64,000 nucleotides of DNA from Bradymonadia bacterium (GCA_046290225.1 JBKAGE010000079.1:160001-224000); one strand, 5' to 3'. Positions 11,027-33,260 are shown, numbered from the stretch's first letter. The notes: generated by a model from the letters alone, not told the origin. Numbers and translations are program-made.

Positions 11027-12460
11027 ATGGCTGAAGAGCGTTCATATCTCGAGCTGTCGCAAGACGAGGGCGTCGCCCACAAGTTCTACGAGGTCACGAT
11101 CAACGACACCGAAGTCACGATCCGGTACGGCCGCATCGGCGACAAGGGCACCTCGAAGACCACCAGCTACGCCGACAACGCCAAGGCCAAGGCCTTCGCT
11201 GACAAGAAGCTCCGAGAGAAGCGCCGCAAGGGCTACGAAGATGCTGTGATGGGGGTGCGCAAGAAGCGGGCGATCACCCGCCGGCAGATCGACAGCAAGC
11301 CTGCCACCACCAAGTCGAAGGCACCGCTGGTCTGGAAGTTCTCCACCGGGCGTTCGGCCTTCGGCGTCTTCGTCGACGACGAGCTGTGCTGGGTGGGCAA
11401 CGAGGCGGGCCGCATCTTCGCGCTGAACCACGAGGGCCAGGTGCAGCGTCAGTTCAAGCTGCCTGACGGGGTGAAGTGCCTCGTGGCCGACGATGAGTGG
11501 CGTTACGCCGGCTGCGATGACGGCACAGTGTACGACATCAGCGGCAAGGCCCCGCTGGCGGCCTACGACATCTCCGAAGACGTGGACATCTACTGGCTCG
11601 ACATTCGAGACGGGGTGCTCGGGGTCTCCGACGCCAAGGGCTTCGTGGTGATGATCAACCATGAAGACGAGTCCCACTGGCAGAAGAAGAGCGACGGCCG
11701 CTCTGGCTGGATGGTGCGCTGCGACGAGATCGGCGTGTACCACGGCCACAGCCTGGGCCTCACCATGTACGACTGGGAAGACGGCTCAGTGGTCTGGAGC
11801 CACCGCCTGCCCAGCGCGGTGCTCTTCGGCTGGCAGGAAGAGTCCACCATCTACGCCGCCTGCGCGAACCGTATCGTGTACCAGTACACCAAGCAGGGCC
11901 ACAAAGGTCACGAGTTCAAGTGCGACGCTGCGGTGTTCTCCTGCGCTGCTGCGGAAGACGGCAAGTATGTCTTCGCCGGTGACAACTGCTCTTCGATCTA
12001 CTGCTTCGACAGCACCGGCAAGCGCCTGTGGAAGATGGCCACAGGTTGCGGCTCTGCCTTCTCGATGCAGTTCCACAACGATCGACTCTTCGTGGTGACC
12101 ACCGACGGCTCCCTCGCCTGCTACGACGTGAGCGACGAGGCCATCAAGGGTGCAGAGTCGGGGCAGACCTTCGACGCCAAGATCATCGCCGCCCCTGCTG
12201 CCACCGCCGACGTGGCCCCCACCACCAGCGTCGACACTGTGGCCGCGAGCGCCGTGAGCAGCGGCGTCGTGGTGGAGTGCTACAAAGAGGGCAGCCGCCT
12301 GCGGGTGCGCCCCGTGGGCGATGGCTTCAACGCCGGCTGGCACGTGCAGTTCCCCAAGCACCTGCGCGAAGCGGGGGCTCGCTATGTGGTCGAGGCCCTC
12401 AAAGAGTCGAGCCGTGGTGGGTTCTACCGCGCCTCGGGCGACATCAAGAAGCTGGTCTAG
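11027..12460 (+). CDS. WGR domain + beta-propeller protein (module A, gene 1)
   Basis: N-terminal HKFYEV..YGRIG..KRRKGY (WGR), WD40/PQQ-like repeats, short C-terminal domain; GGAGAG RBS before ATG 11027. Confidence 0.85.
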   Translation: MAEERSYLELSQDEGVAHKFYEVTINDTEVTIRYGRIGDKGTSKTTSYADNAKAKAFADKKLREKRRKGYEDAVMGVRKKRAITRRQIDSKPATTKSKAPLVWKFSTGRSAFGVFVDDELCWVGNEAGRIFALNHEGQVQRQFKLPDGVKCLVADDEWRYAGCDDGTVYDISGKAPLAAYDISEDVDIYWLDIRDGVLGVSDAKGFVVMINHEDESHWQKKSDGRSGWMVRCDEIGVYHGHSLGLTMYDWEDGSVVWSHRLPSAVLFGWQEESTIYAACANRIVYQYTKQGHKGHEFKCDAAVFSCAAAEDGKYVFAGDNCSSIYCFDSTGKRLWKMATGCGSAFSMQFHNDRLFVVTTDGSLACYDVSDEAIKGAESGQTFDAKIIAAPAATADVAPTTSVDTVAASAVSSGVVVECYKEGSRLRVRPVGDGFNAGWHVQFPKHLREAGARYVVEALKESSRGGFYRASGDIKKLV

Positions 12461-12509
12461 AGCTTACTGCTCGAGAACCATGAACGTACGCTTCAACAGG
12501 ACCTGAATC

Positions 12510-15500
12510 GTGAATTTGATCCGACAGAGCCGGCTCATCTTTCGCCGCGGCGCCTCAGAGAAGATCTACGAGATCGAACTCTGTGAGACCTCGGCCGCTC
12601 CGCCGAACCGCTATGTGGTGAACTACCGCTATGGCCGGCGTGGGGGCACCTTCAAAGAAGGCTCCAAGACCGTCACGCCGGTGAGTCGCGTCGAAGCGGA
12701 TCAAATTTTCGATCACCTCGAAGAAGCGCAGCTGCTCAAGGGCTACCAGCGTGAAGGGGCTGCAGGCGCAGCCCCCCCGCCGGCAACCTCGACGCCCTCT
12801 TCCGGAAGTGGCCTGGGCTCCCGTCTCTCTGGCCGCACACCCACACCCTCGACGACCTCAGCGGGCACCAGCGCCTCGGGTGGCACCCGGCGACGCGTGA
12901 GTGCGCCCACCTCAGCGCCAGCGGCGACAGCCTCGAGATCCCCCAGCGGAGATGCACGACGCGATCGCGTACTGGCACGCCTCGATGAGGGCGACTCGGT
13001 GGCTGGTGCCGGTGGGCGCCGTGGTGGGCTCTCCGGGCTGCGGGCCACCTTCACCCGGCATCGGAGAGGGGCGCGTCGCACCGCCACCCCCGTGGCGTGG
13101 CCTCTCGAGCGCGCCATCTGGCGGGCAGGGGAGCTGCGCCTCGTCGACGCCGTGCCGCGCCTCATCGAGCTCATCGGCACCAAAGACGCTCAGCGGGACT
13201 ACTGCATCGCCTGGGCTCTGGGTCGCATCGACGAGCGCAGCGCCCTCGGCGCCCTCAACCGCCTCTATCGAGATGTCACTGGTCACGAGATGGTGGTGCG
13301 CATGGCCGGTGAGGCGGTGAGGGCCCTGCTCGACGAGACCGAACTGCAGACGTTCCGAGAAGAAGTGGCCCGCAAGCTGCCTGATCCGCTGCGCACACAG
13401 GTGCTCCAAGGCGGCGAGGGGGCTGATGATGCCCTCGCCGAGTCTTTGGGCAACCACTTGGAGAGCAGCGGTCACAAAGCGTGGAAGGCTGTAGAGCGCC
13501 TCTACCTGATCGACAATGACACCACCCGAGCGGTGCTCAAGTCGCTCCTGCGTCAGATGCCTCTCAAAGCCCCCATGTGGCGGGCGGCGCGGCACATCTT
13601 CAAGGCCGCCGAGTTCCGCCTCGACGCCGAGATCTTCGGCCTGCTCGCCTGGCGTATGGCCACGACCCGGGCGTCTTTCAAGCGGGGCCGCTACAGCAGC
13701 TATGTGCGGGACGAAGAGACAGGGGGCTATGTCCGCCTCGACATGACCACCCTGGGCCGCCCCGACGCCAAATACGGCTACGGCAGCGACACCCGGGCCT
13801 ACATGCGTCGTCGTGTCTGGCGCACCCTGCGGCGACTCGGCGAGCTCGGAGACGAGGCCTTTGTGCCCATGGCCGTAGGTGTCTTGTTGCCGTTCTCCGA
13901 CAACGACAAGCGCACCGAGCGGACTGGGTGGAAGGGGCGTGGTCAGGCCCTCTATGGTGAGTTCGCCAGCTACTGGGCCTTCAACCATCTGCTCTACACC
14001 CACAGCGAGTCACATCACCCAGATCGCGCCAACCTGCGCTGGTGGGAGGTGATTCAGGCACCGAGTGGCCGTCGCAGCCGCTCTTCGGTGAGGTCCCGCC
14101 GTGGCAGCCTCAGCGATCGCACAGTGTCTCCGCCCCCTCAACAGGGGCGCACTGAGGCTTTCCCGGAGCTGTGGAACGACAACCCAGGAGGGTTGCTGCA
14201 TTTGCTCGACGAGAGTCGGTGCAGGCGGGTCCATCAGTTTGCCGTCGCCGCCCTGCGCGACAACACCCAGGCCCTCGAGCGCATGCCCATCGAGGCGGTG
14301 TGCATGCTCATCACCGCGCGCTACAAGGTCACCGTGGAGCTCGGCGTCGAGCTCGCCCGGGCCCGTGACGATGGCAGCGCCCCCGATCAGCGTCTGGTCA
14401 TCGCCTGTGCCCGCAGCTCGGTTCAGGCGGCGCGACAGCTGGCCTTCGACTGGATCAATCGTCACCCCGAGCACTTCACCCGTGATGGCAAGTTCCTCGC
14501 CGAGCTCATCACCAGCCAATGGGACGACACCCGCGTCTTCGCCCGAGGCTTGATTCGGGGGCTCACCCTCACCGAAGAGGCGGGCCGCACCCTCGTGGCT
14601 CGCCTAGTGGCCTCGCTCATGGCCCTCGGCAAGGGCAAGCAGAGCCACGAAGAGCAGATCGCCTCTGACGTCGCCGATTTGTTGTTCCGGGTGTTCCGAC
14701 AGCACCTCACAGGTCTCGGAGAGCAGGTCATCGCCGATCTGCTCCGACACCCGCTGCAGTCGGTGCAGGCCCTCGGCGGCGACATCCTGCTCAACCACGA
14801 CACCCTCGCGGCGAGCCCACCAGAGTCCTTGTTGCTGGCGTTGTTGCAGTCGAAACATGCCGAGGTGCGTGCTCTGGGTCTGCGCCTGATGGGTCAGCTG
14901 AGCGACGCCGCCCTCGGCGAGCGCAGCATGATCCTTGTGGCCCTCGCCACTCACAGCGAGGCCGATTTGAGAGCTGGTGCCATCGAGCATCTGAAACGGC
15001 TCGCCCAAATCGGCGATCTCGGCCAGAAGATGGCCGAATCTCTGATTCGCGCCCTCGTGGGGCAGAAGATCAGGGGCGACGGGGCAGATTACGCCGTCGA
15101 GGCGCTCCGTGAGGCCCTCAAAGGGCACTTGCCGGCGCTGCCGATGGATTCGATCTGGCGGCTGCTCAAGTCGAAAACCAAGGCTGGCCAGAGCCTCGGC
15201 GGGCTGCTGCTTGAGGCGGGCGTGAAGGCCGAGACTCTCACTGTCGACGAGATGGCCCGCCTCAGCCGCCACGAGATTCTCACGGTACGAGAGGCTGCGT
15301 GGGCCTTCTATCGCCAGAGCGTGGCGCGCATCAAAGCCGACATGGTGAGCGCAGTGCGCGTCTTCGACAGCGAGTGGGCCGACTCTCGCACCTTCGCCTT
15401 CGAGTTCTTCAGCGATGGCGACGTCTTCACCCGAGAGGCCTTCACACCGCAGATCCTGGTGGGCATCTGCGACAGCGTGCGCCCCGACGTACAGCTCTTC

Positions 15501-15950
15501 GGGCGGCGGCTCATCACTCAGTACTTCAACACCGAAGATGGCGTGGAGTACATGCTCAAGCTCGCCGAGCACCCGTCCATCGACATCCAGCTGTTCGTCA
15601 GCCAGTACCTCGAAGACTACGCTGCCGGTCACGCTGACCGCGTCGAAGCGCTCGAGCCCTACTTCGCCGGTGTGCTCGCTCGGGTGAACCGCGGAGGCGT
15701 GGCCAAGGCTCGTGTGTTCGGTTTCTTCGAGGCCCAGGCCAGCGTCAGCGCCGAGCTCGCGGCCCCCATCGCCCGGCTGCTCGCTCGACAGTCCGCCACA
15801 ATCGCCATCACTGATCGCGCCCGGTGCATCGAGATCATGACCTCGATTCAGCGCCGCTGGCCCGACATCGAGTTGCCCCTCGTGGCTCGCCCGCCAGAAG
15901 CGCGCGGTGCCATCTCCGGGCAGCCCGCGAACGCCAGCGCAGGAGCTTAA
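12510..15950 (+). CDS. WGR domain + ARM/HEAT repeat protein (module A, gene 2)
   Basis: SEKIYEIEL..YRYGRRG..KGY (WGR), Ser/Gly/Arg-rich linker, long helical repeat region. Confidence 0.8.
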   Translation: MNLIRQSRLIFRRGASEKIYEIELCETSAAPPNRYVVNYRYGRRGGTFKEGSKTVTPVSRVEADQIFDHLEEAQLLKGYQREGAAGAAPPPATSTPSSGSGLGSRLSGRTPTPSTTSAGTSASGGTRRRVSAPTSAPAATASRSPSGDARRDRVLARLDEGDSVAGAGGRRGGLSGLRATFTRHRRGARRTATPVAWPLERAIWRAGELRLVDAVPRLIELIGTKDAQRDYCIAWALGRIDERSALGALNRLYRDVTGHEMVVRMAGEAVRALLDETELQTFREEVARKLPDPLRTQVLQGGEGADDALAESLGNHLESSGHKAWKAVERLYLIDNDTTRAVLKSLLRQMPLKAPMWRAARHIFKAAEFRLDAEIFGLLAWRMATTRASFKRGRYSSYVRDEETGGYVRLDMTTLGRPDAKYGYGSDTRAYMRRRVWRTLRRLGELGDEAFVPMAVGVLLPFSDNDKRTERTGWKGRGQALYGEFASYWAFNHLLYTHSESHHPDRANLRWWEVIQAPSGRRSRSSVRSRRGSLSDRTVSPPPQQGRTEAFPELWNDNPGGLLHLLDESRCRRVHQFAVAALRDNTQALERMPIEAVCMLITARYKVTVELGVELARARDDGSAPDQRLVIACARSSVQAARQLAFDWINRHPEHFTRDGKFLAELITSQWDDTRVFARGLIRGLTLTEEAGRTLVARLVASLMALGKGKQSHEEQIASDVADLLFRVFRQHLTGLGEQVIADLLRHPLQSVQALGGDILLNHDTLAASPPESLLLALLQSKHAEVRALGLRLMGQLSDAALGERSMILVALATHSEADLRAGAIEHLKRLAQIGDLGQKMAESLIRALVGQKIRGDGADYAVEALREALKGHLPALPMDSIWRLLKSKTKAGQSLGGLLLEAGVKAETLTVDEMARLSRHEILTVREAAWAFYRQSVARIKADMVSAVRVFDSEWADSRTFAFEFFSDGDVFTREAFTPQILVGICDSVRPDVQLFGRRLITQYFNTEDGVEYMLKLAEHPSIDIQLFVSQYLEDYAAGHADRVEALEPYFAGVLARVNRGGVAKARVFGFFEAQASVSAELAAPIARLLARQSATIAITDRARCIEIMTSIQRRWPDIELPLVARPPEARGAISGQPANASAGA

Positions 15951-15952
15951 CG

Positions 15953-17638
15953 GTGGAGTTCACGTTCAACTATCGAGGGGCCAGCGCCGTCAACAACCGC
16001 GCCGACCGAACCGAGATGGTCTTCTCACCCGACACGCTGCGCGATCCGACCTTCTTTCGGGGAGAGCTCACCGCCAGCAGCCGTGGCGGGGGCATCCCGT
16101 TTCGAGAGGCCATCAGCGCTCTGCACGATGTCGTGGTGCAAGATGGCCGGTTCGTGCCCAAGGACAAGAGCGCCTACAAAGCCTGGGTCGCTCAGCAAGA
16201 GCAGCTCGACGTGCTCGATCTCGCCGCAGAGCGGGCCGACATCGCCGACGAGATCAAAGAGCTGCGTGACGAGCTGAGGGTGCTCGATCAGAGATCGACC
16301 CGGCGTACGTCTGAGTTCTACGCCGCTCGGCGTCGCTATTGGGATTGGCTCTACCGGCACGACTACAACGCCTGGCTCATCTTCGACCCGGTGATCACCG
16401 TGCACCCCGACGAGCTGTTCTTCGAGTGCTTCAGCGTCGACGAGTCGAGTTATGGGCGCCTCGGGGTGAACCACGACGTGTTCCAGAACCTCGGCGATAT
16501 GGCGTGCGGTACAACGAACGTCGACTACTCGCAGCAGCTGTATGACGAGTTCCAAAAGATCCGCAGCTACAAGACCACCACGTTCCAGGTCGATCCCAGC
16601 GGCTTCGAGACTCAGACTCACGACGCCACCACCTTCAGCGAGGCTCACAAAGAGGTCAAAATCGACCTGCCCGACACGTGGGTTCGGGGTTTCTTGCAGG
16701 TGAACTCGGCCATGTCGTTGCCGGCCACCACCTTCACGCTGCATCCCATGGACGTGCACAACTTCTGCTTCGTGCTGCGGCGCCACAAAGAGATCGTGGG
16801 TCCGCGGTCGATGCGTTACGTGCTCACCCCCGGACAGCCGGTAAAGGTGGTCTTCGAGCCCTGGGACTTCGAGGTGGTGTGTCCACGCTCGATCTACGAG
16901 GGCCCCGTGGCCCAGGAGATCCGGGTCTGGGGCCGCCGCCGGCTGAACGTGCTCGAGCGGCTGATCCCTGTGGCCCGTAAGTTCACCGTGCATCTGCTCG
17001 GCAGCGGCATGCCTTCGTTCTACGTGGCCGATCTCGGCGATATGTCGTTCACCCTGGGCCTCTCCGGCTGGACGACGAACGACTGGGCCGCCGCGGGGAA
17101 CTTCGATCTCATGGCCCCTCGGGCAGATGTCGACGCCGACACCAAGCGGCGTGTCTTTCAGGCCCTCAAGGCCGACTGGCTCAAGACCCCCGATGTGCTG
17201 GCACACGATCTCAACCTCGACCGTGCCACGGTGCTCGGGGCTCTGGGCGCCTGGACCCAGGCGGGACGAGCCATCTACGACCTGAACAAGGGTGTGTATC
17301 GGGCCCGAGAGCTCAGCCGGGAGCCGCTCCCGCTCGACGCGCTGCGGTTCTCCAGCCCCCGAGAAGAGTCGGCCCACACCTTCGTGAGTCAGGGCAAGGT
17401 GCGCCTCAACAACACCAGTCACGACAATCGTGGCTGGTTGCATCTGAGGGGCACTGTGAAAGACACCGCTGCTCGAGGAAGCAGCAAGCAATACATGCCG
17501 TCGATCATCATCGACACCGACGAGCGGATGAATCACGGCGAGTGCACGTGCAACTGGTACACCCAGAACAAGCTCTACAAGGGCCCGTGCGAGCACATGA
17601 TCGCTTTGCGGTTGGAGTACAACCGCAGGCGGCATTGA
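15953..17638 (+). CDS. SWIM zinc-finger protein (module A, gene 3)
   Basis: AGGAG RBS + GTG 15953; C-terminal CTC-x12-CEH (17543-17596) fits SWIM CxC-xn-CxH. Confidence 0.85.
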   Translation: MEFTFNYRGASAVNNRADRTEMVFSPDTLRDPTFFRGELTASSRGGGIPFREAISALHDVVVQDGRFVPKDKSAYKAWVAQQEQLDVLDLAAERADIADEIKELRDELRVLDQRSTRRTSEFYAARRRYWDWLYRHDYNAWLIFDPVITVHPDELFFECFSVDESSYGRLGVNHDVFQNLGDMACGTTNVDYSQQLYDEFQKIRSYKTTTFQVDPSGFETQTHDATTFSEAHKEVKIDLPDTWVRGFLQVNSAMSLPATTFTLHPMDVHNFCFVLRRHKEIVGPRSMRYVLTPGQPVKVVFEPWDFEVVCPRSIYEGPVAQEIRVWGRRRLNVLERLIPVARKFTVHLLGSGMPSFYVADLGDMSFTLGLSGWTTNDWAAAGNFDLMAPRADVDADTKRRVFQALKADWLKTPDVLAHDLNLDRATVLGALGAWTQAGRAIYDLNKGVYRARELSREPLPLDALRFSSPREESAHTFVSQGKVRLNNTSHDNRGWLHLRGTVKDTAARGSSKQYMPSIIIDTDERMNHGECTCNWYTQNKLYKGPCEHMIALRLEYNRRRH

Positions 17639-17679
17639 CGAGAGTTTCGATATCTAGACAAACGTGCAGCGTTTGGCGG

Positions 17680-17708: not shown

Positions 17709-17727
17709 CTGAACCAACGCTCTTTGA

Positions 17728-18056
17728 CAACACAACACACAACACAGGGCATCAACCTGATGCTCAGTCTAATGAATCAAATTGATTAGACTGTGCTCTC
17801 GCTGGCGTCGTGAACAGAGACCTTGCAACCCGGGCGGCGGATCGCCGTCCTTGCCACTTGCTTTGTCATGCGTCACTGGCCCGCTCTTTACTGTGGCGCC
17901 CGTCGCACTGGGGGCGACATTCCGGTATGGCTCCCGTGGAGCCAATGTCGCCCCCAGTGCGGGGCGCCTGGAGTTGAGTCGATCCAGTCCCGAGAGGAGT
18001 ACGAAGGTGATCGATGTCAGCGTTCGGGCTGATGCCTTGTGTTGTGTGTTGTGTTG
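17728..18056 (+). ncRNA. Retron msr-msd ncRNA A
   Basis: 33-nt inverted arms 17728-17760 / 18024-18056 (30 Watson-Crick, 2 G.U, 1 A.C); msr-like hairpin 17765-17793; long msd-like hairpin 17895-17968 with a perfect 18-bp stem; directly upstream of a retron RT. Confidence 0.9.
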
Positions 18057-19797: not shown

Positions 19798-20080
19798 GGC
19801 TTGGTCTTCAGCCCGGTGAATCAGTGCTACATCACCATCAAACGATGTCTCCATGAAAAGCGTAAGACCAGCCTTATTGAAGAGTTGTCTTCTGGATGTT
19901 GTGGTGGGGCCCTGGTAGGCAGTCATCGCTTCGCTCTGACTGCCTACAAGAGGCTCAGCTATAGCTCTCGTCCTTGAATGGTTCGACGCGAATCAGCATT
20001 TGATATTGATGTTTGGTGAGATGAGTCCTCAGGTCCGTGAGGCGGCCGAAACCTGCCTCACGGGTCACTGAGCATGCTGA
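19795..20080. other. Structured non-coding spacer between the convergent RT genes
   Basis: Stems 19795-19808/19864-19876, 19915-19925/19937-19947 (11 bp perfect), 20032-20043/20055-20066. Confidence 0.6.
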
Positions 20081-23349: not shown

Positions 23350-26300
23350 GAGCGCACCTCCTTCTGGGCACGGGCGCGCCGGGCACGGCGCAGGGCCCGC
23401 CATGCGGCCTTCCTCATGTCTTCGTCTTCCTTCTCGTTGGTCGCCACGGCGAGGATCGGCTTCTCTGCGGCCTTGGCCTTGGCTTCGTCGGCGGCGATGC
23501 GGGCCAGGGCCTCCAGGGCCCCGAGCCGGGCGTCGGCCTTGAGTGTCTTGTCGTTGAGCGCGGCGGTGAGGCCGTCGATGTCACCACGGGCCACCAGGTG
23601 CGGCAGGACCACACCCTGGCGGTGAATCTGCCCCGCTGCACCTCGCAGAATCGCCCCACTGGCTTTGTCGTCTGCTGCGCTGAGCAGGCGGTCGAGGGCC
23701 GGACGATCGTCGAGGGCCCCTTCGAGCAGCGTGGCTGCCCGCTTGGGGTCGAGGGCGGAGACCGCCGTCGAGGCGAGCGTACGCAGCTCGGCGTCGGGCC
23801 CAGTCGCTGCGGCGACGAGGGCGTCGAGGCCCTTGGCCTTGGCGAAGCCCGACGACAAAGCGGTGATGGCCATCTGCCGCAAGGGCCGCGCTTCACGGGG
23901 CACCATGGCAGAGACCTGAATCAGCACCTCGGCCCCTGCCTCGAGTCGGCCACAGGCCCACAGAAGCCAGGAGAGGCGATCGGTGAGCTGAGAGAGGGCC
24001 TGACGGTGTTGGTGCTGACCGCTCCGAGCGGCAGAGAGCCGCTGGTATCGATCCGACCAGAGCGTGAGGCTCTGAGTGGCCGCCTCGGTGACAGCCTTGC
24101 CGTGCTTCTTGCCCTCACCGACACGACCCAGGATGCGCGCCGCCACCTCGACGGTGCGATCGTGGCTGGCGCCGAGGGCTTCGACTGCCTCGGCCACCGG
24201 CGCAGGATCACGGGTGAGCAGGGCGTTCACCAGAGGTGGCACGTACTCTTCGGTGTAGTCCTCGTTGATCTTGGGCAACACCTTGAGCAGACGGCCGGCT
24301 TCACCCCGCTCGCACAGCCGCTTGAGCGTGTCCTCTTCGAGATCGTCGAAGGGGCTCTGGATGAAGATGTAGTCGGGCTCGAGGGACTCGGCGCCATACT
24401 GCGTACGGAGCGCGGTCGCGGCGGCCTGGGCTACGTCCCAGTCGTCATCTTCGATGAGCTGCTTGGCGAGGGCCTCTCGCGTAGCCACGTCGTCGTGGTG
24501 AGCGAGCAGCTCGCAGACCCGCTGTCGGATCGACCAGTCATCGTCGTTGATGCGCCCACGGACGAACTGCCACGCGGCGTCACCACCGAACCAGCGCAGA
24601 CCGCTGAGGGCGTACTCGGCCACGCCATCATCGGCGCCGGCGAGACCCTTGAGGATCTTGAAGATCTTCTCGCGGTGCTCACCCTCGGCCAGGTGGCCGA
24701 TGGCCTCCGCGGCCTGCTCTTGCAGAGCGTTATCCTCGTCGTTGACCAGACGCAGCAGCAAGTCGAGGGCTCGTGGATCACCGAGCTTGCCCAGGGCCTC
24801 GACGGCCCGCTGGCGGTAGCTGATGTTCTCGAGCAGATCGACGGAGGCGAGGAGCACGCTGATGCCATCGGCCCGCCCGCCGAGGGCCAGGCCCTCTGCG
24901 GCGACGAACTGAGTGACCTGATCTTTGTGCTTCAGAGCCTCGACGAGAGCCTCGGCCTTGCCCTCACGGTGGCGCAGGCGCCACGAGAGTGCGTCGAGGG
25001 CCGACAGGCGCACGTTGTCCTTGGGGAAGGCGGCGAGCTGAGCCAGGGTGCCGTCGACGACAGCCTCGGGGCACCACTTGGCGCCGGCCATGAGCTTCTG
25101 CAGCCAGCCGGTGTCGTTGGCGCCCCAGGCGGCCTCAAGGAGGGCACCGAAGAGGTCGTGTTGGCGGGCGTGTTGCCCTTTCTGCCACCCGTCGTCTTCC
25201 TGACCCGTGCGATCGATCTCGTCGAAGTCGACGTTGAGATACTGGTTGTAGCCCGTGACAGTGAGGGCGGCGTTGAAGGCGTATCCGGCACGTTGCTTCT
25301 GGCCGAGATCAGCCAGGAGGCGCGGGAACACTTCGCGGCGCCGGAACTCACCTACATGCTGGTAGATGTTGCGCATATCGGCGTTGCCCGCGGGATCGTT
25401 GTCGACCCGGTTGAGCATGGCGTCGGCGGTGCGCTCGTCGGCGAGGCGTGCCAGGGCGTTCAAGATACGGCCCTGGGTGTTGGAGGCCGTGGCCAGCAAC
25501 TTCACCAGCGGGTCGAAGCCCTTGGCCTCCTGAATGCTGCCCAGCTGGATCGCCACCTCGAGGCGTACATCGAGGAAAGGGGAGTCCACGGCGTCGAGCA
25601 AGGCCTTGAGGGCGGCCTTTTGTACCTTGGCCTCAGCGTCGGGCTTGACCTTGAGCATGGCCAGCTTGCCCGGCGCCTGGTTGCGCAGGCGACTCGAGCG
25701 GGCCTGCAGCCCCTCGGCCCAGGGCATCACGGGCTCTCCCTGGCCTTCGAGGAGCTTCACCGCCTCGAACTCCAGGCCGTCTTCCTTGGTGCGCAGCACG
25801 TCGAGCAGCACTCGCCGGCCTTCCTTGGCACCGCTCTTCTTGGCGAGCAGCTCAAGGGCCATGACCCCCACATCGCCCTGACCGGTGGCCAGCGCCTCGG
25901 CGGAGAGCTGCGAGACATCGTAGCCGACAGCGTTGAGGGCCTCGAAGGCAGCCCGGCGCACGATGGCCGAGTTGTCTGTGAGGCGCTGCACGAAGACCGG
26001 GATGGCGGCTTCGGCGGTGCCGTGACCCTCAGCGACCATGGTCTGCAAGCGGACCAGGGCTTGACGGCGCACCCATGCAGGGGCCTCGCCGGCACGACAC
26101 AGCCCGGTGTAGGCGCCGAAGACCAGCTGCTGCAGGGTGGCGTTGTCGTAGGCGGTCTTGGCGGCCTTGCGCTTCTTCGCCGCCTTGGCGAGGGCGTCGA
26201 GATCTACGGCGTACCGGGTGGAGAACACCCGCCACAGGCGGTTGAAGGCCCCCTGTTTCTTCTCGCCGAGGCCCTTGAGCACCTCTGCGGCGCGGGCCTT

Positions 26301-29300
26301 GAGGCGGGGGGCCCCGAAGGTCACCGCCTCGGCGAGCTGGGTGATGGTCTCCTCGGTGATCGTCCAGGCCTTCTGGCCGTCTCCGCGATCGTTGAACACG
26401 TCGACGACGTGACGGCCGAAGGCGTCGAGATCACCGAAATGCTCCAGGGCCTTGGCACCTGCGATGCGCACCCGGGCGTCTGCTGAGGAGAGCGCCGCGA
26501 GGCAGCGATCGGGGATGCCGTCGTTCTCGCGCCACTCCATGAGCAGCATGAGGTTGAGGGCCTGCTGGCGGATGTCGCTGTCGTTGTGGTCGAGGAACGA
26601 CAGGAAGACATCCTCAACGTCGAGGGTGAGGGCGGCCCACAGCGCCACCTGAGCTGGGGCCCCGGCGTGGGTGGGGGCTGCGCGCCGAGTGGCGCGGCGG
26701 CGACCGCCCCGAGAGGGGGTGTCCTCAGCCTGACGATGCGCGAAGAGGATGGAAGCTCCTGTGGCATCGGCCAGTCGGGCGAGCCCCTTGGCGGCGATCA
26801 TGCGTACGGCCTCGTCGCCGTGTCGCAGGGCGGCCTTGAGGGCTGTGGGATCCTCGGCGTTGTCGGACCACGCCAGGGCCTCGGCGGCGCCCTTGCGGAT
26901 GCTGGCCTCGTCGTTGGCCAGCAACTTCACCAGGCTCTCGACGGCGTCGACGTGGCCCAAGGCCCCGAGGCCCTCGAGGGCCACCAGGGTGTCGGCCTGC
27001 CAGAGCGTCGCGAGATCGGAGACCTCGGGGCGTTCTGAGTTGACCTGCTCCAGCAGAGGCTTGAGGGCCTTCTCGTCGCCCACCACCGCACGGGCCGCGG
27101 CGGCCTTGTTGCGCACGTCGCGGTGCTCGCTGGACATCGCCTTCACCAGGGCGTCGTCGTTGTCGGCGAGCTTGAGGGCGTTGATGGCCACCGAGCGCAC
27201 ATCAGCGTCATCGTCGTCGAGGGCCTTCACCAGCAGCGGAGCAGTCTCTTTGGAGTACTTCCGCGCCAGGGCCTTCACCGAAGTGAGGCGCACGTCGGCG
27301 AAGGGGCTCTCCAGGCCACGGCTCAGCGGGGCGAGGCCCTTGGACTTGCCTTTCTTGACGGCGAAGGCGAAGGCGTCGGTGCGCAGGTCTTGATCGGGAT
27401 CGTCGAAAAGACCCAGCAACATGTCCCAGGCCCATGGGTGAGCGATCTCGCCCATGACCTCGGTGAGCACCTCGCGACGGATGTTGGGGTGCAGGCTCTT
27501 CAGGGCGAAGGCCAGAGTGGCGTCACCACCCCCCATGACCTGCAGGTTGATGGTGGCCTTGAAGGCCTCGCTGCGGATCGCGCTCCCGGCGTCGTTCAGG
27601 GCCCGCTCCAGCAGGCCGTAAGCGGCGTCGTTCGGGTCGGCGGGCAGCTTCTTCTTGAGCTGCCGGACCAGCACGCTCAGGCCCCGGCGGCGCACGTCTT
27701 CGTGCTCCGCCATGAGGCCCGCCTCAGCGGACTCGAGGGGGGTGTCGGAGAGCAGCCGCGACAGGGCGGTGAAGGCAGCGTCGCGGACCTGACCCGTTGT
27801 GTCCCGGAGCATCAGGCGCAGGCGCTGCAGGCCCCGAGGATCACCGAGGGCCTCCAAGGCCCGGCAGGCCTCTACCCGTGCGGTGCTGTCGTCGGCTCGG
27901 GTGAGCTGCAGCAGCGTGCCGAAGGCGCGGGGATCTTGCAGCTGCGCCAGGGCTACGGCGCCACGGACACAGGTGTCGAGGGCCTGACCCGCCATGGCTT
28001 CAAGCAGAGGTGCGAAGTCATCGGCGGTGAGATCGGCCGTCTTGACCTTCTTGGTCTTCGGCAGCGCGGCCTCGGGATCGATCTCCTCGCCATGGGTCTC
28101 GATCTGGTAGAGGCGCCGGTGCACGTCTTTGTCGAGGTGGCGCACCGCCTGGGCGAGGGTGAGCTGGCTGAGCAGCCGCACGTCGAAGGCCATCAGTCGA
28201 ACCGAGGCCTCGCGATCTTCCAGGGTACGGCGCAGAGCGGAGCGCACCACGGCCTCGGCGAGCAGCTCGCGCTGGTGAAGCCGCAGCAGCGCCTGCCAGC
28301 GCAGATCGGCCTGGCCGCTCTTGAGCCCGATGAGGGTGCCCACCGGGTCGTCGCCGTAGAAGCCCTCCAGGGTCTCCAGGGCTGCGAAGCGCACCTCGCG
28401 AGGGTTGTCGTCAAGGGCCCGGGTCAGGCGACTCAGGGCCTGCTCGTCCTCACCGGCGAGGGTGCCGAGGGCCTGCACAGCCTCAACGCCGATGTCGGCC
28501 TTCCGCGCGCCGAGGGCGAGCTCGAGGGGGCGCAGGTTGCTTTGGCCTTCGAGGGTACGCAGCCCGGTGAGGGCCGCTCGCCGCACCTTCTCGCTGCCGC
28601 CTCGGAGCAGGCCTTCGAGGGGCTGCACCGCCCGGCGGTTGTCGCTGTTGCCCAGCAGCTCGACGGCGAGCACGCGCAGGGCGTGATCGTCATCGTCGCT
28701 GGCCCGGCTGGCGATCATCTCGATGGCCTTGGCGTCGTTGTAGCCTGCCAGGGCCTGCAGGGCCTCCTGACGGGTGGAGACCTCCTTGGCCTTGAAGCTG
28801 CGACGGGCCCAGGCGTATGCGTCGCGGATGGTGAGCGAGCGGTGCTCGATCTTGCCCGCGGCGTCCTGGATGAAGAGCCGGATGGTGTTGTCGTTGCTGG
28901 CGATGGCCACGTGACCACGGCTCTTGTAGGTCACCTGCGCCATGGCCACGACGGGCTTGAGCGTGTCCTTGAGCGTGGACGGGCGCTTGTTGCCTCCGCC
29001 CACCGTCCAGATCTTCACCTCGCCGTCACGGCCGCCGGTGTAGAACTTGTCGGCGTCGTCCTCGATGGCGGGGCCTTCGGCGATGATTGCGCCGCTGCTG
29101 TGACCGCCGCGACCGCCGCGCTCCTCGGGCTCCAGGGTGCCCCGTACGTGAGTCACGAGCAGGCGGCCGTCGGCGCCGGCGCTCATCACCCGGAGCTCCT
29201 CGGGCTCGAAGCACAGCGAGGTGACCTCGCCGTTGTGGGCCTTGGCGTTGTTGCCCGCGAGGAACTGGGGCTTCTCTTCACAGTCGAAGACCACCAGGGT

Positions 29301-29783
29301 GCCCTTGGCGGTGCCCACCACGAGCCAGTTGCCCGAAGGGTCTGCGGCGAGGGCGGTACCGGCCTGGGGCAGCTTCAGGCGCTGAGCCACAGCGCCGTCG
29401 GCGATGGTGATGATCAGCAGCTCTTCTCCGGCGATGGCGGCCATGCGGCCTTCACTCGCCAGCGCCAGCGCCGTGGGGGCGGGCTCGAGGGCCTCGGTGA
29501 AGGTTGTGGCCTCACCACCGGCAGCGGGGCTCGAGTAGAGCTTGTCGTCGGTGCCGATGAAGTAGAGCGTGTTGTCGCCGGTGATCTCGTCGATGATCAG
29601 ACCACGGGCGCCACAGGGCAGCGCCGTCGAGGCCAGCTCGAGCTTCTCGAGATCGATCCGGTACAGGGCGGTGGGCTGCCCCTCAGGGTGCACGGTGGTG
29701 AGCACGAGGGTGCTCTCCAGGCCCACGAGGGCGGTGACGTCACCGCGGTACTTCAGGGTCTTTTCGCTTGTTGCGGCGGCCAT
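23346..29783 (-). CDS. 2145-aa WD40 beta-propeller + HEAT-repeat protein (module B, gene 2)
   Basis: N-terminal WD-like repeats (AHNGEVTSLCF, SAGADG, TGGRDGEVKIW) followed by many D-x-VR-x-AA-x-AL HEAT/PBS-like repeats. Confidence 0.85.
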   Translation of the reverse strand: MAAATSEKTLKYRGDVTALVGLESTLVLTTVHPEGQPTALYRIDLEKLELASTALPCGARGLIIDEITGDNTLYFIGTDDKLYSSPAAGGEATTFTEALEPAPTALALASEGRMAAIAGEELLIITIADGAVAQRLKLPQAGTALAADPSGNWLVVGTAKGTLVVFDCEEKPQFLAGNNAKAHNGEVTSLCFEPEELRVMSAGADGRLLVTHVRGTLEPEERGGRGGHSSGAIIAEGPAIEDDADKFYTGGRDGEVKIWTVGGGNKRPSTLKDTLKPVVAMAQVTYKSRGHVAIASNDNTIRLFIQDAAGKIEHRSLTIRDAYAWARRSFKAKEVSTRQEALQALAGYNDAKAIEMIASRASDDDDHALRVLAVELLGNSDNRRAVQPLEGLLRGGSEKVRRAALTGLRTLEGQSNLRPLELALGARKADIGVEAVQALGTLAGEDEQALSRLTRALDDNPREVRFAALETLEGFYGDDPVGTLIGLKSGQADLRWQALLRLHQRELLAEAVVRSALRRTLEDREASVRLMAFDVRLLSQLTLAQAVRHLDKDVHRRLYQIETHGEEIDPEAALPKTKKVKTADLTADDFAPLLEAMAGQALDTCVRGAVALAQLQDPRAFGTLLQLTRADDSTARVEACRALEALGDPRGLQRLRLMLRDTTGQVRDAAFTALSRLLSDTPLESAEAGLMAEHEDVRRRGLSVLVRQLKKKLPADPNDAAYGLLERALNDAGSAIRSEAFKATINLQVMGGGDATLAFALKSLHPNIRREVLTEVMGEIAHPWAWDMLLGLFDDPDQDLRTDAFAFAVKKGKSKGLAPLSRGLESPFADVRLTSVKALARKYSKETAPLLVKALDDDDADVRSVAINALKLADNDDALVKAMSSEHRDVRNKAAAARAVVGDEKALKPLLEQVNSERPEVSDLATLWQADTLVALEGLGALGHVDAVESLVKLLANDEASIRKGAAEALAWSDNAEDPTALKAALRHGDEAVRMIAAKGLARLADATGASILFAHRQAEDTPSRGGRRRATRRAAPTHAGAPAQVALWAALTLDVEDVFLSFLDHNDSDIRQQALNLMLLMEWRENDGIPDRCLAALSSADARVRIAGAKALEHFGDLDAFGRHVVDVFNDRGDGQKAWTITEETITQLAEAVTFGAPRLKARAAEVLKGLGEKKQGAFNRLWRVFSTRYAVDLDALAKAAKKRKAAKTAYDNATLQQLVFGAYTGLCRAGEAPAWVRRQALVRLQTMVAEGHGTAEAAIPVFVQRLTDNSAIVRRAAFEALNAVGYDVSQLSAEALATGQGDVGVMALELLAKKSGAKEGRRVLLDVLRTKEDGLEFEAVKLLEGQGEPVMPWAEGLQARSSRLRNQAPGKLAMLKVKPDAEAKVQKAALKALLDAVDSPFLDVRLEVAIQLGSIQEAKGFDPLVKLLATASNTQGRILNALARLADERTADAMLNRVDNDPAGNADMRNIYQHVGEFRRREVFPRLLADLGQKQRAGYAFNAALTVTGYNQYLNVDFDEIDRTGQEDDGWQKGQHARQHDLFGALLEAAWGANDTGWLQKLMAGAKWCPEAVVDGTLAQLAAFPKDNVRLSALDALSWRLRHREGKAEALVEALKHKDQVTQFVAAEGLALGGRADGISVLLASVDLLENISYRQRAVEALGKLGDPRALDLLLRLVNDEDNALQEQAAEAIGHLAEGEHREKIFKILKGLAGADDGVAEYALSGLRWFGGDAAWQFVRGRINDDDWSIRQRVCELLAHHDDVATREALAKQLIEDDDWDVAQAAATALRTQYGAESLEPDYIFIQSPFDDLEEDTLKRLCERGEAGRLLKVLPKINEDYTEEYVPPLVNALLTRDPAPVAEAVEALGASHDRTVEVAARILGRVGEGKKHGKAVTEAATQSLTLWSDRYQRLSAARSGQHQHRQALSQLTDRLSWLLWACGRLEAGAEVLIQVSAMVPREARPLRQMAITALSSGFAKAKGLDALVAAATGPDAELRTLASTAVSALDPKRAATLLEGALDDRPALDRLLSAADDKASGAILRGAAGQIHRQGVVLPHLVARGDIDGLTAALNDKTLKADARLGALEALARIAADEAKAKAAEKPILAVATNEKEDEDMRKAAWRALRRARRARAQKEVRS

Positions 29784-29786
29784 CGA

Positions 29787-32700
29787 TCAGGCCTCCTTCC
29801 AGCAGTCGAGGTCGGGCCATGCCCGCCGCATCCGGGTGAGGGCCACCAGACAGGCGGCCCGCTCGCTCTGACCCCGAGAGCCCAGGAACTCCTGGAGCAG
29901 CGGGGCCGACTTCTCGGCGAAGCCCTGATCTTCCAGGGCGAGATCCCGCACCACGTCCACGAGGGCCAGCTTGGCCTTTCGGGCGGGGAGGGGCGGCAAA
30001 GTACGCTTTTTGCGCTTGCCCTCAGCAGGGCGGGGCAGCTTCGCCGGGGGGATCCCGAAGAGGGTGCGCCTCAAGAAGCTCTGCAGATCGTCGGGGCTCG
30101 CCGGGGGGTTCTCGGGCTTCGCCGGAGCGCCCTGGGGCTTCGGTGCATCTTCGGCCTGTTGCTTCTTGGCGCCGCGGCGCTTCTTCACCTTGGGGGCGGG
30201 GGGGGCCGGGGGCAGCCAGCCCTCGGTGATGCCCCGCTCGCGGTACAGGTGCCAGAGCTGCCGCACCACGAAGGCCCGGACCTGACGGTCGGGGCTCTCG
30301 GTGAGGCGGAAGAGCTCTTCGGGGATGGCCAGCCGGGGGTTCCGGGCGATGAGGGCCATGCCCAGACCTCGGGCCGAGGCGTCGGTGGACTCGCAGAACT
30401 GGTACACCGCGTCGGCGGTGAGCACCTTCGGGTCTACTCGGAAGCGCCGGGTCTCCGTGGACTCCTCGGCGGTGAGGGCCTCGAAGACGAACTGACGGAT
30501 CTCGGGGTAGGGCAGCTCCGACAGCTCGACGAGGGCCTCCATGGGCGGGGACCAGCGGGCGAACTCGTAGCGGCTGTACTCGAGGCCCAGCTGACGCAGC
30601 CGCTCCCGGCTGTCGGCGAGCAGGCCTCTGACCCGGTCGAAGGACAGGAAGTCGTCGGGGATCTCCGCCCCCGGATCGACGTAGCGCTCGGTCTCGATGG
30701 CGCAAATCTCGGGGTGGTGCAGCCGCAGGTAGTGCAGTGCGAACCGGGCGAGGGGCGATTCATCGATGGCCTTGCCGTCGGCGAGCAGCATGGCCCAGAG
30801 GCGCTCACAGCCCGCCTCGGTGCTGCCTTCGTCTGCCTGAGTCGCCTCACCGGAGAGCATCTTCAAGAACGCGGTCTCGGAGATGATCTTGATGGGGGCG
30901 CCGCCGGCCTGCAGCTTCTCGGCCTTGAGCATCTTGCTGCCCTTACGGCCGTTGCCGTAGAGGGGGGAGCCGTCGTCACCGATGACCAGGTAGTCCAGCT
31001 TGCCGTTGACGCCCGAGGCGTTCTTGCCGTTGGCGTCGGTGACCTTCCGCTGCGCCTGAGAGCGGGTCATGGTCATCAGCTTGCCGGTGAAGACGAAGCT
31101 CTGTCCCTCGAGATCGATGTTGATCTCACCGTCGGCACTCGCCTCCTCTGCAGGAGCGTCAGCACCTTCCTCCTTCTCGGCGAAGTCGGCGGGCAAGAAA
31201 GCCTTGGTCATGTAGGTGACGGCGAAGTCGTGGTACCGGGGCTCGGTGCGCTCCACGAGCTGCATCAGCCAGTCGAAGCCCACTTGATCGGCGCTGAACA
31301 GTCGCACGTCGGCGAGCAGTCCGAGGGCGAAGCCCGACAGGCCGTCGGAGAACTCCAGATCTCGAGCCCAGACCCGGCCGCTCTCTTTGAGGGCCTTCAC
31401 CCAGTCGCTCTCCGACCAGGTGCCGTGGAAGGCGATGATCTTGAAGAAGTCGTGACCCACGTCGGCGGGCTTCACCCGGCCTTCGTCGATCCAGCCCTTC
31501 ACCCGGCTCGTGCAAGCGGGGTTCACCAGCGTCCGGCGGATGAACTCCATGTCGTCGGCGGTGATGGGGAACCGCTCCAGAGCGTCGAGGGCGAAGCGGA
31601 CAGCGTAGCGATGGAGCTCCGGCGCGTCGAGCAGATCGCGGTAGTACTGGGCCCCAAGCTTCTTGTCGGGGTGGATCTTCCGCAGCTGCTCGGTGGCGAA
31701 GTTCACCACCTTCGAGTTGTCGGACTTCAGCCGCTCGGCGAACCACTCGGGGGTCAGCTCACGGGCGCCGAAGTGCTTCGCCAGAGAGGCCGTGGCCAGG
31801 TCGTGGCCATAGGGGCTGCCCAGCAGGCGGCCCCAACCGTCGAGGCCCACGTCCTTGCGCGGATCGCGATCACGCAACAGGTCGCGGCTCATCTTGCGCA
31901 CGGCGTCGTGATCGTTGTTCGCCAGGCGGATCAGCTCGTCCAGCTCGAGATCTCGAGCGTGAGTGCGGGCATACTTCGCGGCGTAGCTGCGGGCGTTGTC
32001 CGAAGGGGAGTCGAGCAGCTTCAGCACGGCGGTGTGCAGGCCCTCGGTCCGGAAGGCGCTCTGCTCGAAACGCGGTACATTGTCGAGCAGCCAGATGACG
32101 AACTCGTCGACGATGCGGCTGCCCACCTCGATGAGGCGCACCACCCAGGGGGCCTCCACCTCGCGCAGGCTGGCCCGGAAGTCGGACTTCAGGGCGTCGA
32201 TGGCGAAGCGGCGGGCCTGCTCGGAGTGGGCGCGCTCCAAGAGGCTGAAGAGGGGACGAGGCGAACGACGCCACAGCTCGGCGAAGGCCCGGTACTTGAG
32301 CAGGGTGGACGGACGGCGCCAGTACTTGAAGCCCCGGCGGCCGTACTTGCCCTCCTCATGATAGAAGATGTGGTTCGCCACCCAGGTTTTGAGCCAGTTG
32401 GTGTTCTCCGGGTAGAAGCGGAGCACGTCCACGGCGGCGTCGGCGTAGCACGCCGGCAGGGTCTGGGCGATGCGGCGGAGGGTGCGCCAGCCGCGGCGCA
32501 CCATGTAGCCGATGGTGGCCTTGTGCACATCGCTGCGGCTCGACCAGCGGGCGTAAGCCACGTCGAAGCGGGCTGTGAGGGCGCCGTAGATCTCGTAATC
32601 GCCCCGCTCTTCGGCCTCTTTGAAGATGACCTTCAGCGCCCGCCAGGGCCCCCAGGTGAGGGGCACCTCGGCGATGACCTCCAGCAGGCGTTGCCGGGCG

Positions 32701-33017
32701 TAGGCCCCGTTGTCGCGCCAGAGGGTCATCAGGATCTCGTGCACCCGCAGCCGATCGGGCATGGCCTCTTCGGGGCCAGCCTCGAGCTGAGCGATGAGCG
32801 CCCGGCGGCGGGCGTCGCGCTCGGCGAGCTTCTTCCGCTTGAAGGCGTAGCTTCTCAGCTCACGGTAGACCTCGTCCCAGGTGAGGGTGCCCTCTGGGGG
32901 CGGGGTCTCCGGAGTGGGCGCCGGATCGCGCACGAGGCGGATCACGAGCTGAGAAAGATCGGGATCCCGAGCTTCCCAGGCCCGGCGGACGTCAACGAGT
33001 CCTAGAGTGGTCTCCAC
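29787..33017 (-). CDS. ARM/HEAT protein with internal BRCT domain (module B, gene 1)
   Basis: LEGQSFVFTGKL..TRSQAQ..SGVNGKLDYLVIG..GSK..KA..IISETAFL (~30855-31113) is a LigA/RFC-type BRCT; GAGGAG RBS + GTG. Confidence 0.85.
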   Translation of the reverse strand: METTLGLVDVRRAWEARDPDLSQLVIRLVRDPAPTPETPPPEGTLTWDEVYRELRSYAFKRKKLAERDARRRALIAQLEAGPEEAMPDRLRVHEILMTLWRDNGAYARQRLLEVIAEVPLTWGPWRALKVIFKEAEERGDYEIYGALTARFDVAYARWSSRSDVHKATIGYMVRRGWRTLRRIAQTLPACYADAAVDVLRFYPENTNWLKTWVANHIFYHEEGKYGRRGFKYWRRPSTLLKYRAFAELWRRSPRPLFSLLERAHSEQARRFAIDALKSDFRASLREVEAPWVVRLIEVGSRIVDEFVIWLLDNVPRFEQSAFRTEGLHTAVLKLLDSPSDNARSYAAKYARTHARDLELDELIRLANNDHDAVRKMSRDLLRDRDPRKDVGLDGWGRLLGSPYGHDLATASLAKHFGARELTPEWFAERLKSDNSKVVNFATEQLRKIHPDKKLGAQYYRDLLDAPELHRYAVRFALDALERFPITADDMEFIRRTLVNPACTSRVKGWIDEGRVKPADVGHDFFKIIAFHGTWSESDWVKALKESGRVWARDLEFSDGLSGFALGLLADVRLFSADQVGFDWLMQLVERTEPRYHDFAVTYMTKAFLPADFAEKEEGADAPAEEASADGEINIDLEGQSFVFTGKLMTMTRSQAQRKVTDANGKNASGVNGKLDYLVIGDDGSPLYGNGRKGSKMLKAEKLQAGGAPIKIISETAFLKMLSGEATQADEGSTEAGCERLWAMLLADGKAIDESPLARFALHYLRLHHPEICAIETERYVDPGAEIPDDFLSFDRVRGLLADSRERLRQLGLEYSRYEFARWSPPMEALVELSELPYPEIRQFVFEALTAEESTETRRFRVDPKVLTADAVYQFCESTDASARGLGMALIARNPRLAIPEELFRLTESPDRQVRAFVVRQLWHLYRERGITEGWLPPAPPAPKVKKRRGAKKQQAEDAPKPQGAPAKPENPPASPDDLQSFLRRTLFGIPPAKLPRPAEGKRKKRTLPPLPARKAKLALVDVVRDLALEDQGFAEKSAPLLQEFLGSRGQSERAACLVALTRMRRAWPDLDCWKEA

Positions 33018-33046
33018 GCAGGTCTCCTCGCAGGTTCCTCAAAGGG

Positions 33047-33177
33047 CTCCCCACAGCCGAGCCGTCAGCGCCCGAACATCGGGGCCGACAGATCACCTGT
33101 GAGCAGGCGAACTGTGAAATTGAGGGAGGGCGCGGGTCAGCCACAGGCCCGCGACACCTGCCGCAGGTTGTGGGGAG
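33047..33177 (-). ncRNA. Candidate retron ncRNA B in the leader of module B
   Basis: 12-nt inverted arms 33177-33166 / 33058-33047 with one A.C mismatch, enclosing three hairpins (33131-33153, 33093-33110, 33062-33091); CAACCUGnnGC motif shared with ncRNA A. Confidence 0.55.
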
Positions 33178-33228
33178 ATGGTGAGGGGTGGGCCCATCTC
33201 CAACCTGAGGCACCTACCTCGGATGGAG

Positions 33229-33260
33229 ATGGTCAGACCACATCAGAACAGGCAAGTCAA
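33229..33260 (-). promoter_or_regulatory. Promoter-like motif upstream of module B, similar to the ncRNA A promoter
   Basis: TTGACTTGCCTGTTCTGATGTGGTCTGACCA vs TTGACAAGCTGGTTTTGATTCAATACGGTCTGAACCA; no good -10 at 17 bp. Confidence 0.4.

Follow-up and report, generated by a model that had tools for sequence, protein, structure and literature searches.

Do two retrons that end tail to tail in one bacterial genome form a single system, and from which RNA does each reverse transcriptase (RT) copy its DNA? These questions are raised by positions 11,027 to 33,260 of a 64,000-nucleotide stretch of a Bradymonadia bacterium genome (GCA_046290225.1, JBKAGE010000079.1:160001-224000; hereafter the window, in whose coordinates positions are given unless a contig or locus is named), where two convergent four-gene runs meet, module A on the plus strand and module B on the minus strand. 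The source genome, which we call G000, comprises 8.58 Mb in 83 contigs, and the locus lies on contig C79. We are fairly confident in reading the pair as two complete, separately functioning type XIII retrons that diverged anciently and are neighbours in one narrow lineage, module B being split from its template RNA. The result worth keeping is this split architecture of module B and its clade: no template RNA of the family lies in or beside operon B, and two lie on another contig, C35. The features of the locus are the following.

11027..12460, plus strand: A1, a WGR domain and beta-propeller protein, 477 aa (Pfam WGR E 4.6e-18; PQQ_2/propeller matches)
12510..15950, plus strand: A2, a WGR-like and HEAT/ARM protein, 1146 aa (PADLOC WGR_XIII, 1040 bits)
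15953..17638, plus strand: A3, the type XIII primary partner, 561 aa (PADLOC SWIM_XIII E 2e-228)
17728..18056, plus strand: msr-msd non-coding RNA (ncRNA) of module A, of a putatively Ne144-like family (arms, folding z, covariation)
18175..19797, plus strand: RT-A, a retron RT of the Ne144 clade, 540 aa (PADLOC RT_XIII E 6e-186)
19893..19960, no strand: collapsed end of a genome-wide palindromic non-coding repeat (BLAST matches across contigs)
20081..21439, minus strand: RT-B, a retron RT of a presumed Mx162-like clade, 452 aa (PADLOC RT_XIII E 2e-170)
21439..23349, minus strand: B3, the type XIII primary partner, with a degenerate SWIM finger, 636 aa (PADLOC SWIM_XIII E 1e-179)
23346..29783, minus strand: B2, a WD40 propeller and giant HEAT-repeat protein, 2145 aa (Pfam HEAT_2 and WD40; PADLOC HEAT-ARM_XIII, 1964 bits)
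29787..33017, minus strand: B1, a HEAT/ARM protein with an internal BRCT domain, 1076 aa (PADLOC HEAT-ARM_XIII, 1165 bits)
33018..33262, minus strand: operon B 5' leader, a probable promoter region with no msr-msd (fold, conservation, profile)

The stops of the two RT genes lie 283 nt apart, and both RTs are intact, with NAxxH, YADD and VTG motifs in each; this bears out the first-pass annotation of the window, which had reported two intact retron RTs ending tail to tail about 280 bp apart, each closing its own co-directional gene run. Seven of the eight module proteins match PADLOC type XIII models strongly and the A1 propeller does so weakly, RT_XIII being the best model for both RTs by 234-285 bits over the next. 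The type XIII architecture that had been proposed is thus supported by the RT_XIII, SWIM_XIII, WGR_XIII and HEAT-ARM_XIII matches. That the two modules belong to two distinct subtypes, another of the earlier proposals, is upheld by the RT phylogeny that had been suggested as a check. In a quick tree of 80 RTs made with IQ-TREE, from which a single frameshifted locus lacking an open reading frame (ORF) was omitted, the RT-A clade has 20 rows (Shimodaira-Hasegawa-like approximate likelihood ratio test, SH-aLRT, 99), and the RT-B clade has 30 rows (SH-aLRT 100) that split into 7 and 23, with a support of 97 for the 23-row subclade that holds RT-B. We take the RT-B clade to be putatively Mx162-like, a label drawn from the CAGC context and 242-nt span of cis RNAs in the sister subclade, set against published figures for Mx162. 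RT-A is 57% identical to the named RT-Ne144 of Retron-Nex2 (Nannocystis exedens) and shares one clade with it (FastTree support 97). The assignment of A and B to two separate subtypes of type XIII is right. The partners had also been called clearly paralogous, which stands for the RTs (41% identity) and the SWIM-family proteins A3 and B3 (34%); the ARM proteins have one common 277-column patch at 27%, and the beta-propellers of A and B do not align to each other.

The first retron to be discovered belongs to type XIII. According to the available part of PMC7736814 (Mestre et al., 2020), this type corresponds to RT clade 10, is inherited vertically and occurs in layouts that combine an RT and a SWIM/DEDE partner with either one WGR-ARM gene or two HEAT/ARM genes. 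The two modules match both of these layouts, the WGR-ARM gene being A2 (WGR_XIII) and the two HEAT/ARM genes B1 and B2 (HEAT-ARM_XIII), in each case before the SWIM gene; the GC content of 61-69% at the locus, against a genome mean of 64%, is host-like and consistent with the reported vertical inheritance. Compared with the type XIII retrons described in the same part of that source, several things differ: module A has a WGR-propeller gene beyond those of its Table 1 (A1, orthologues of which, at 59-64%, adjoin other A modules), two subtypes abut here, and the msr-msd of module B lies away from its RT, in two distant copies. The word 'island' used in the first-pass annotation finds no support if a mobile element is meant: tRNA and Rfam scans of the window gave no matches, the flanking ORFs that we scanned include no integrase and no further defence gene, only ordinary cellular or unassigned genes, and the GC content is that of the host.

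Each run had been credited with a structured ncRNA or a candidate for one, which proved correct for module A and not for module B. Module A has the contiguous msr-msd of retrons and, like Retron-Nex2, carries it in cis before the RT. Its RNA ends 118 nt before RT-A and has 33-nt a1/a2 inverted arms, a conserved msr hairpin and msd base, and a folding z of -12.4. We found the family in the gap between the SWIM and RT genes of 18 of the 19 other A-clade loci (the profile was built from 17 of these and found the 18th), and across 18 sequences double changes occur in 12 of 27 consensus pairs. At 17762-17796 an extra hairpin stands between the outer 33-nt and an inner arm pair, and the RNA is 60-100 nt longer than its relatives. 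Two metagenome loci (L183 9246-9694 and L199 9070-9570) carry two tandem A-family ncRNAs before one RT. In genome G302 (L044 12364-15440) an A-clade module has its SWIM gene abutting the RT and a degenerate zinc finger; judging from this locus, the A clade, too, may have detached RNAs.

Module B lacks a contiguous msr-msd, and a profile search found no RNA of its family anywhere in the 64-kb window. The four genes of operon B overlap or almost touch at all junctions, the start of RT-B overlapping the stop of B3, and would thus be coupled in translation, with no space for an RNA inside the operon; of the 22 other loci of the RT-B subclade, 20 likewise have the SWIM gene directly against the RT. 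Two candidates beside the operon were considered and rejected. The leader, taken as 33018-33290, shows no conservation, has a folding z of only -2.8 and gives no match to either ncRNA profile. The inter-RT hairpin (z -3.8 on the plus strand, 19-nt imperfect arms) is not conserved behind other RT-B genes, matches neither profile and is the end of a repeat. This repeat, whose collapsed end lies at 19893-19960, is about 500 bp long with long palindromic ends and is represented in the genome by 90 ends and 35 paired copies; its length classes are about 480-520 bp (a full copy is G000:C79:74693-75206).

A profile built solely from four cis RNAs of RT-B's sister subclade found two copies of the family on contig C35 of the same genome, each with E of about 1e-7.

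G000:C35:41463-41676, plus strand: B template 1, conserved core (B-family profile; z -8.4 or -7.8 for the pair)
G000:C35:465071-465284, plus strand: B template 2, conserved core (B-family profile)

In both copies arms and an msr hairpin are present, the priming context is TAGC and the msd forms a long hairpin; their folding z values are -8.4 and -7.8. They differ from each other at 21 of 214 positions, which amount to ten compensatory pairs and one loop base. The copies lie at least about 129 kb and 169 kb from operon B, and there is no retron protein within 5 kb of either. Sigma-70 consensus scans gave no promoter at either C35 RNA, at the A RNA or at the B leader. RT-A and RT-B are the only RTs in the whole of G000. 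A genome scan with RT-A alone returned one distant locus. Since no B-family RNA lies beside RT-B, we file module B as a split variant that would be type XIII-like in its working. Upstream of one C35 copy, a TnpB/IS605 OrfB gene (L101 3595-4734, G000:C35:40094-41233) ends about 200 nt before the RNA, and ruvX and mltG follow.

To what extent this split is a property of the clade can be read from a phylum sample of 401 genomes (at least 90% complete, G000 included). RT_XIII positives were defined by a match at E 1e-100 or better, and three RT candidates at most were scored per genome, which makes all counts of multiple RTs lower bounds. We took 78 regions around RT matches and left out three short contig-edge matches, two of which were examined separately. 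A BLAST search of 66 chosen genomes (E 1e-4 or better) detected the B-family RNA in 18 of the 23 genomes of the subclade and in one of the 43 others, G009, which turned out to carry a fragment of RT-B at the end of a contig. A two-part motif matched 21 of the 401 genomes, all of which have a B-clade RT (21 of 26 such genomes), and none of the 375 without one, with no match for the reversed control; the motif alignment took in 18 of the 21 matched genomes, so its sensitivity is circular and its specificity independent. When the motif was relaxed, matches fell to chance level. In an alignment of 25 members, 91% of cells pair and double changes occur in 44 of 58 pairs, a level reached by 0 of 500 shuffles and far above that of slid controls, the structure having been derived from the same alignment. 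The msr and the hairpin base are nearly invariant and the stems covary. RNA distance also follows RT-B distance (rho 0.82 over 21 genomes; 0.42 within the subclade, 8 of 2000 permutations), kin not being independent in this comparison.

The position of the RNA varies among the 18 subclade genomes that have it. It stands at the operon head in four (two co-directional, two divergent), behind the RT in two, and detached in six (G013, G015, G021, G023, G101 and G369), where detached means that the whole operon was seen together with at least 2.5 kb upstream and 4 kb downstream. Five more have no retron gene in the flanks of the RNA (up to 1.5 kb) with the operon head unseen, and one further case stays ambiguous; G000 is the seventh fully detached case. 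A reading of all distant matches as detached was rejected, because on split contigs four of them sit at an operon head and two behind an RT. Additional copies, whose stems differ, are present as three in tandem in G004 (G004:C234, L102 1100-2000), as two in G046 and as at least three, two of them partial, in G182, and the single-contig genome G265 (G265:C1; L143, L155, L156 and L157) has one cis copy and three that are more than 1 Mb away. In G009 (L117 1270-1425) most of the msd stem is deleted with the msr and both ends kept, which may reflect assembly collapse or a short natural variant. In G021 (L031) there are frameshifts in the WD40-HEAT and SWIM genes and the RT is intact, a picture of decay or of sequencing error. 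The B-family RNA was not found in G401.

These patterns suggest that RT-B is the enzyme that copies the C35 RNAs, a claim we regard as highly probable, and that in the B clade the RT operon most likely draws in trans on one or several template genes that stand alone. Several observations weigh against our overall reading, beginning with the circular sensitivity of the motif. Five of the 23 subclade genomes (G014, G028, G029, G030 and G228) yielded no RNA, even with a second DNA query. This absence would suit the C35 RNAs being by-products, that is, duplicated or reinserted msDNA-like copies (msDNA, multicopy single-stranded DNA), with module B RNA-less and decaying or repurposed; the degenerate SWIM finger of B3 and the TnpB gene directly before one C35 copy point the same way, the paired stem changes could stem from hairpin repair instead of selection, and the Ne160 repeats, which have no RT nearby, are taken as duplicated insertions in the accessible text of PMC6868368. 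However, all four B genes are intact and RT-B has kept its catalytic motifs, no genome was found to have the RNA family and lack a B-clade RT, the family's msr and hairpin base are held nearly constant while the stems covary, and in six relatives with the whole operon in view the detached copy is the only one found. We consider a by-product origin very improbable.

Another point on the opposing side is that the A RNA and the C35 RNAs have an identical msr stem of 8 bp, with different loops. Since region Y recognises the msr stem-loop in Eco1 (from the accessible text of PMC6868368), cross-use of RNAs between A and B is possible from the sequences. In a rival reading, RT-B would borrow the ncRNA of module A, which would explain the adjacency, and the C35 RNAs would be relics; the lack of a cis RNA at module B and a weak match of the B profile to the A msr (E 0.004) speak for this. 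Against it, both C35 RNAs are intact, with ten compensatory pairs of difference between them, the family to which they belong goes with B-clade RTs whether or not A is present, and the 8-bp stem is the consensus of both RNA families, co-occurring or not, outside which the families differ. We give the borrowing of A's RNA very little credence.

It is also extremely unlikely that the juxtaposition, or the separation of B from its RNA, is an artefact of assembly or binning. The genome is in 83 contigs with a repeat remnant at the junction, and no listed contig of two public DNA runs bridges the junction: these runs, from one study, reach 28 and 20 of 30 bins in short contigs, and 0 of 16 listed pieces span it (no RNA run holding the locus is listed among public sequencing runs). 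However, G000 has a completeness of 99.4% and a contamination of 2.2%, only one of its contigs is larger than C35, detachment recurs in the six relatives on long contigs, G265 has its three distant copies on a single contig besides the cis copy, and relatives of RT-A, RT-B and a neighbouring gene are all listed with one longest contig, as set out below.

The two retrons so close together had been read as possibly forming one two-retron system; unlinked occurrence of the two subtypes in most genomes carrying them was part of what would refute this, and unlinked occurrence is what we found. Among the 401 genomes, 52 are RT_XIII positive and 18 have two or three type XIII RTs, of which G000 alone has two within 300 kb; the search for convergent pairing in other genomes, one of the checks that had been proposed, thus found no second case. 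By clade, 17 genomes have A, 26 have B and 6 have both, leaving 11 of 17 A genomes without B and 20 of 26 B genomes without A; on single contigs, G266 and G380 are A only, and G265 has B without an A-clade RT. Seven genomes besides G000 carry both clades, and tail-to-tail linkage is excluded in six of them (G004, G006, G009, G015, G023 and G182), where the 3.7-12.7 kb that follow at least one RT are free of the partner; in the seventh, G302, both RTs are near contig ends, so that linkage can be read in neither direction. None of 79 fetched loci contained a second RT, at least 3.5 kb downstream being available in 58 of the 78 with a called RT ORF, and none of 80 metagenome loci contained two RTs, only 18 of the 36 type XIII-like ones having 5 kb downstream. 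The convergent pairing is not conserved, and a coupled system of two retrons is unlikely given that A modules mostly occur without B and B modules without A.

What such coupling would involve is a shared complex, a mixed clamp ring or cross-guarding, with the adjacency kept by selection, and the remaining points against our reading concern this adjacency. By our rough estimate, chance would bring the two together in about 1e-4 of genomes, hence adjacency probably has some cause. B or a B fragment accompanies A in each of the six genomes of the family that have A. The closest relatives of RT-A (69%) and RT-B (81%) are both listed with a longest contig of 216,279 nt, so the linkage is probably older than the split from those relatives. 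The partners are paralogous clamp-fold proteins with a zinc finger in only one of them. On metagenome contig L197, a B-type RNA and first gene have another type XIII RT 6.7 kb upstream of them. However, each module has a complete gene set and each RT clade has its own ncRNA family, and the relative of the neighbour gene dctM is listed with the same 216,279-nt longest contig, so that the arrangement is probably genuine and one close relative probably has it too, as a piece of general synteny. Taking these together with the unlinked genomes, we judge coupling improbable. Type XIII systems would, it appears, cluster occasionally.

As to a cause of the adjacency, rearrangement through the repeat whose collapsed end sits at the junction is one candidate, not shown. 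Two other explanations gained no support: homologues of dctM and apaH in five relatives lie on contigs other than those of their retrons, which gives a shared insertion site no backing, and lateral arrival of module A beside a resident B is unsupported, A3 grouping with family members (support 88) and the RT tree giving no resolution. On L197 (7010-21113), the order of genes is a SWIM-RT pair of another subtype, then sulfatase, kinase and DUF1501 genes, then the B-type ncRNA and an ARM-BRCT gene.

The protein partners offer a view of how the msDNAs might be held. The first-pass annotation had placed a SWIM-family protein in each run, and the finger is intact in A3 (CxCx12CxH, likewise in 26 of 27 A-like rows); in B3 three of the four zinc ligands are replaced, and 8 of 25 B rows are wholly or partly degenerate with the domain still aligning. 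In an AlphaFold2 model of A3 (predicted local distance difference test score, pLDDT, 84.6), residues 34-377 match the two-domain PCNA/9-1-1 fold, with a Z of 15.9 and a root-mean-square deviation (rmsd) of 2.8 over 217 aligned residues against PCNA, which Foldseek ranks first; the winged helix/SWIM tail matches ZSWIM8 (Z 8.5, rmsd 2.5, 82 aligned). The primary partner is therefore predicted from the model to have a PCNA-like clamp fold, although its identity to PCNA/9-1-1 sliding clamps is 6-15% and it differs from them by a long helical insertion and extra N-terminal strands. In contrast, the available part of PMC7736814 proposed a transposase-derived DEDE protein. Of the DEDE motif (cluster-114), the first three acidic positions and a downstream aspartate are present in A3 and B3, and the last glutamate is unconserved in the alignment. 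A C-terminal WGR-like extension of B3 was read by eye and has no Pfam match. ESM Atlas neighbours of A2 carry WGR and HEAT_2, and neighbours overall carry BRCT, WGR and HEAT only; the BRCT domain of B1 has a Pfam match at the cut-off and LigA-type BRCT matches. The start of A3 is a GTG assigned from its ribosome-binding site, and that of B3 is placed by its overlap with B2. Searches with Pfam, NCBIfam and PADLOC gave no toxic or enzymatic effector domain in either operon.

A retron RT primes on the G after arm a1 and copies the msd into branched msDNA. We propose that both subtypes were long resident in the family and later brought tail to tail in one narrow lineage. Module A would be canonical, RT-A copying the adjoining upstream msr-msd into a branched msDNA whose hairpin would measure about 140 nt, and RT-B would copy the two stand-alone C35 msr-msd genes in trans, yielding two msDNAs of about 160 nt each with base and tip alike and stems different (the boundaries behind these sizes were set by us). 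Because only the msd base and tip are conserved in sequence, the stem would seem to matter as a duplex of fixed length. Each RT-msDNA would assemble with its own clamp-fold/SWIM partner on HEAT-repeat scaffolds bearing WGR or BRCT nucleic-acid-binding domains, with the clamp-fold partner holding the duplex stem and the bound msDNA hairpin serving to sense, or as a decoy to divert, proteins that act destructively or as processing enzymes on DNA ends or hairpins. By analogy with other types of retron, a sensing or defence role is what we would on balance expect. A domesticated role in DNA metabolism is a tentative alternative, and one that fits because vertical inheritance is reported for type XIII (PMC7736814, accessible part) and the locus has no island features. 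We found no mechanism for type XIII in the literature searched. It is also conceivable, if rather unlikely, that the Mx162-like retrons of the phylum have a dispersed, expandable template repertoire, in which one RT and clamp partner serve several msr-msd genes, each transcribed on its own, whose msDNAs would have a constant base and tip and variable stems and act as a small library of sensors or decoys, each with a specificity of its own; on that reading RT-A and RT-B may draw on a common pool of three RNAs through the shared msr stem.

How does this architecture compare with known retrons? In the accessible text of PMC6868368, Mx162 has a CAGC context, a 241-nt transcript and a 162-nt msd. 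The cis RNAs of RT-B's sister subclade resemble those of Retron-Mxa1 (Mx162) and Retron-Sau1 (Sa163), three of the four having CAGC and one spanning 242 nt between arm ends, and the predicted B msd of about 160 nt, with boundaries set by us, is close to the 162 nt given there. Unlike Mx162 as described there, the RT-B subclade has its RNA apart from the RT, and the priming context of both C35 copies is TAGC. The nearest precedent for detachment is the Ne160 repeats of Retron-Nex1, as relayed by the same part of PMC6868368: a duplicated msr/msd with no RT within a kilobase, interpreted as repeated insertion. Like these, the B-family RNAs are msr-msd copies without a neighbouring RT; unlike them, as far as that text describes them, detachment here is clade-wide, co-occurs strictly with one RT clade and often involves the sole template found. 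The literature searched contains no report of paired type XIII retrons or of a detached type XIII template, older myxobacterial msDNA work and supplements being thinly covered; the available part of PMC8632793 has nothing relevant, and a term search of bioRxiv 10.1101/2024.01.25.577267 gave no matches.

A retron is defined as a contiguous RT-ncRNA cassette, and the surveys consulted confine their search for the RNA to the vicinity of the RT, +/-10 kb in a 2026 survey (PMC13712802, from its accessible part). A search of this kind would miss RNAs of this subclade that lie 12-13 kb off, where the operon begins, or at other places in the genome, and the retrons would be counted as RNA-less; the B-family motif recovers these templates and makes the clade testable. 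How widely this may apply is indicated by 2,198 proteins, among them members of other type XIII clades, that match RT-B with an E of 1e-100 or better, and by planctomycete RTs that fall in RT-B's subclade. With two subtypes and three templates in one genome, G000 is a compact test bed for RT-RNA specificity, stem variation and the clamp-fold partner, and a natural RT with several trans templates would be of interest to retron-based DNA production. Beyond the two modules, positions 38331-43039 of the window hold a 493-aa ORF without a Pfam match, preceded by a 1106-aa Ser/Thr kinase with C-terminal HEAT repeats.

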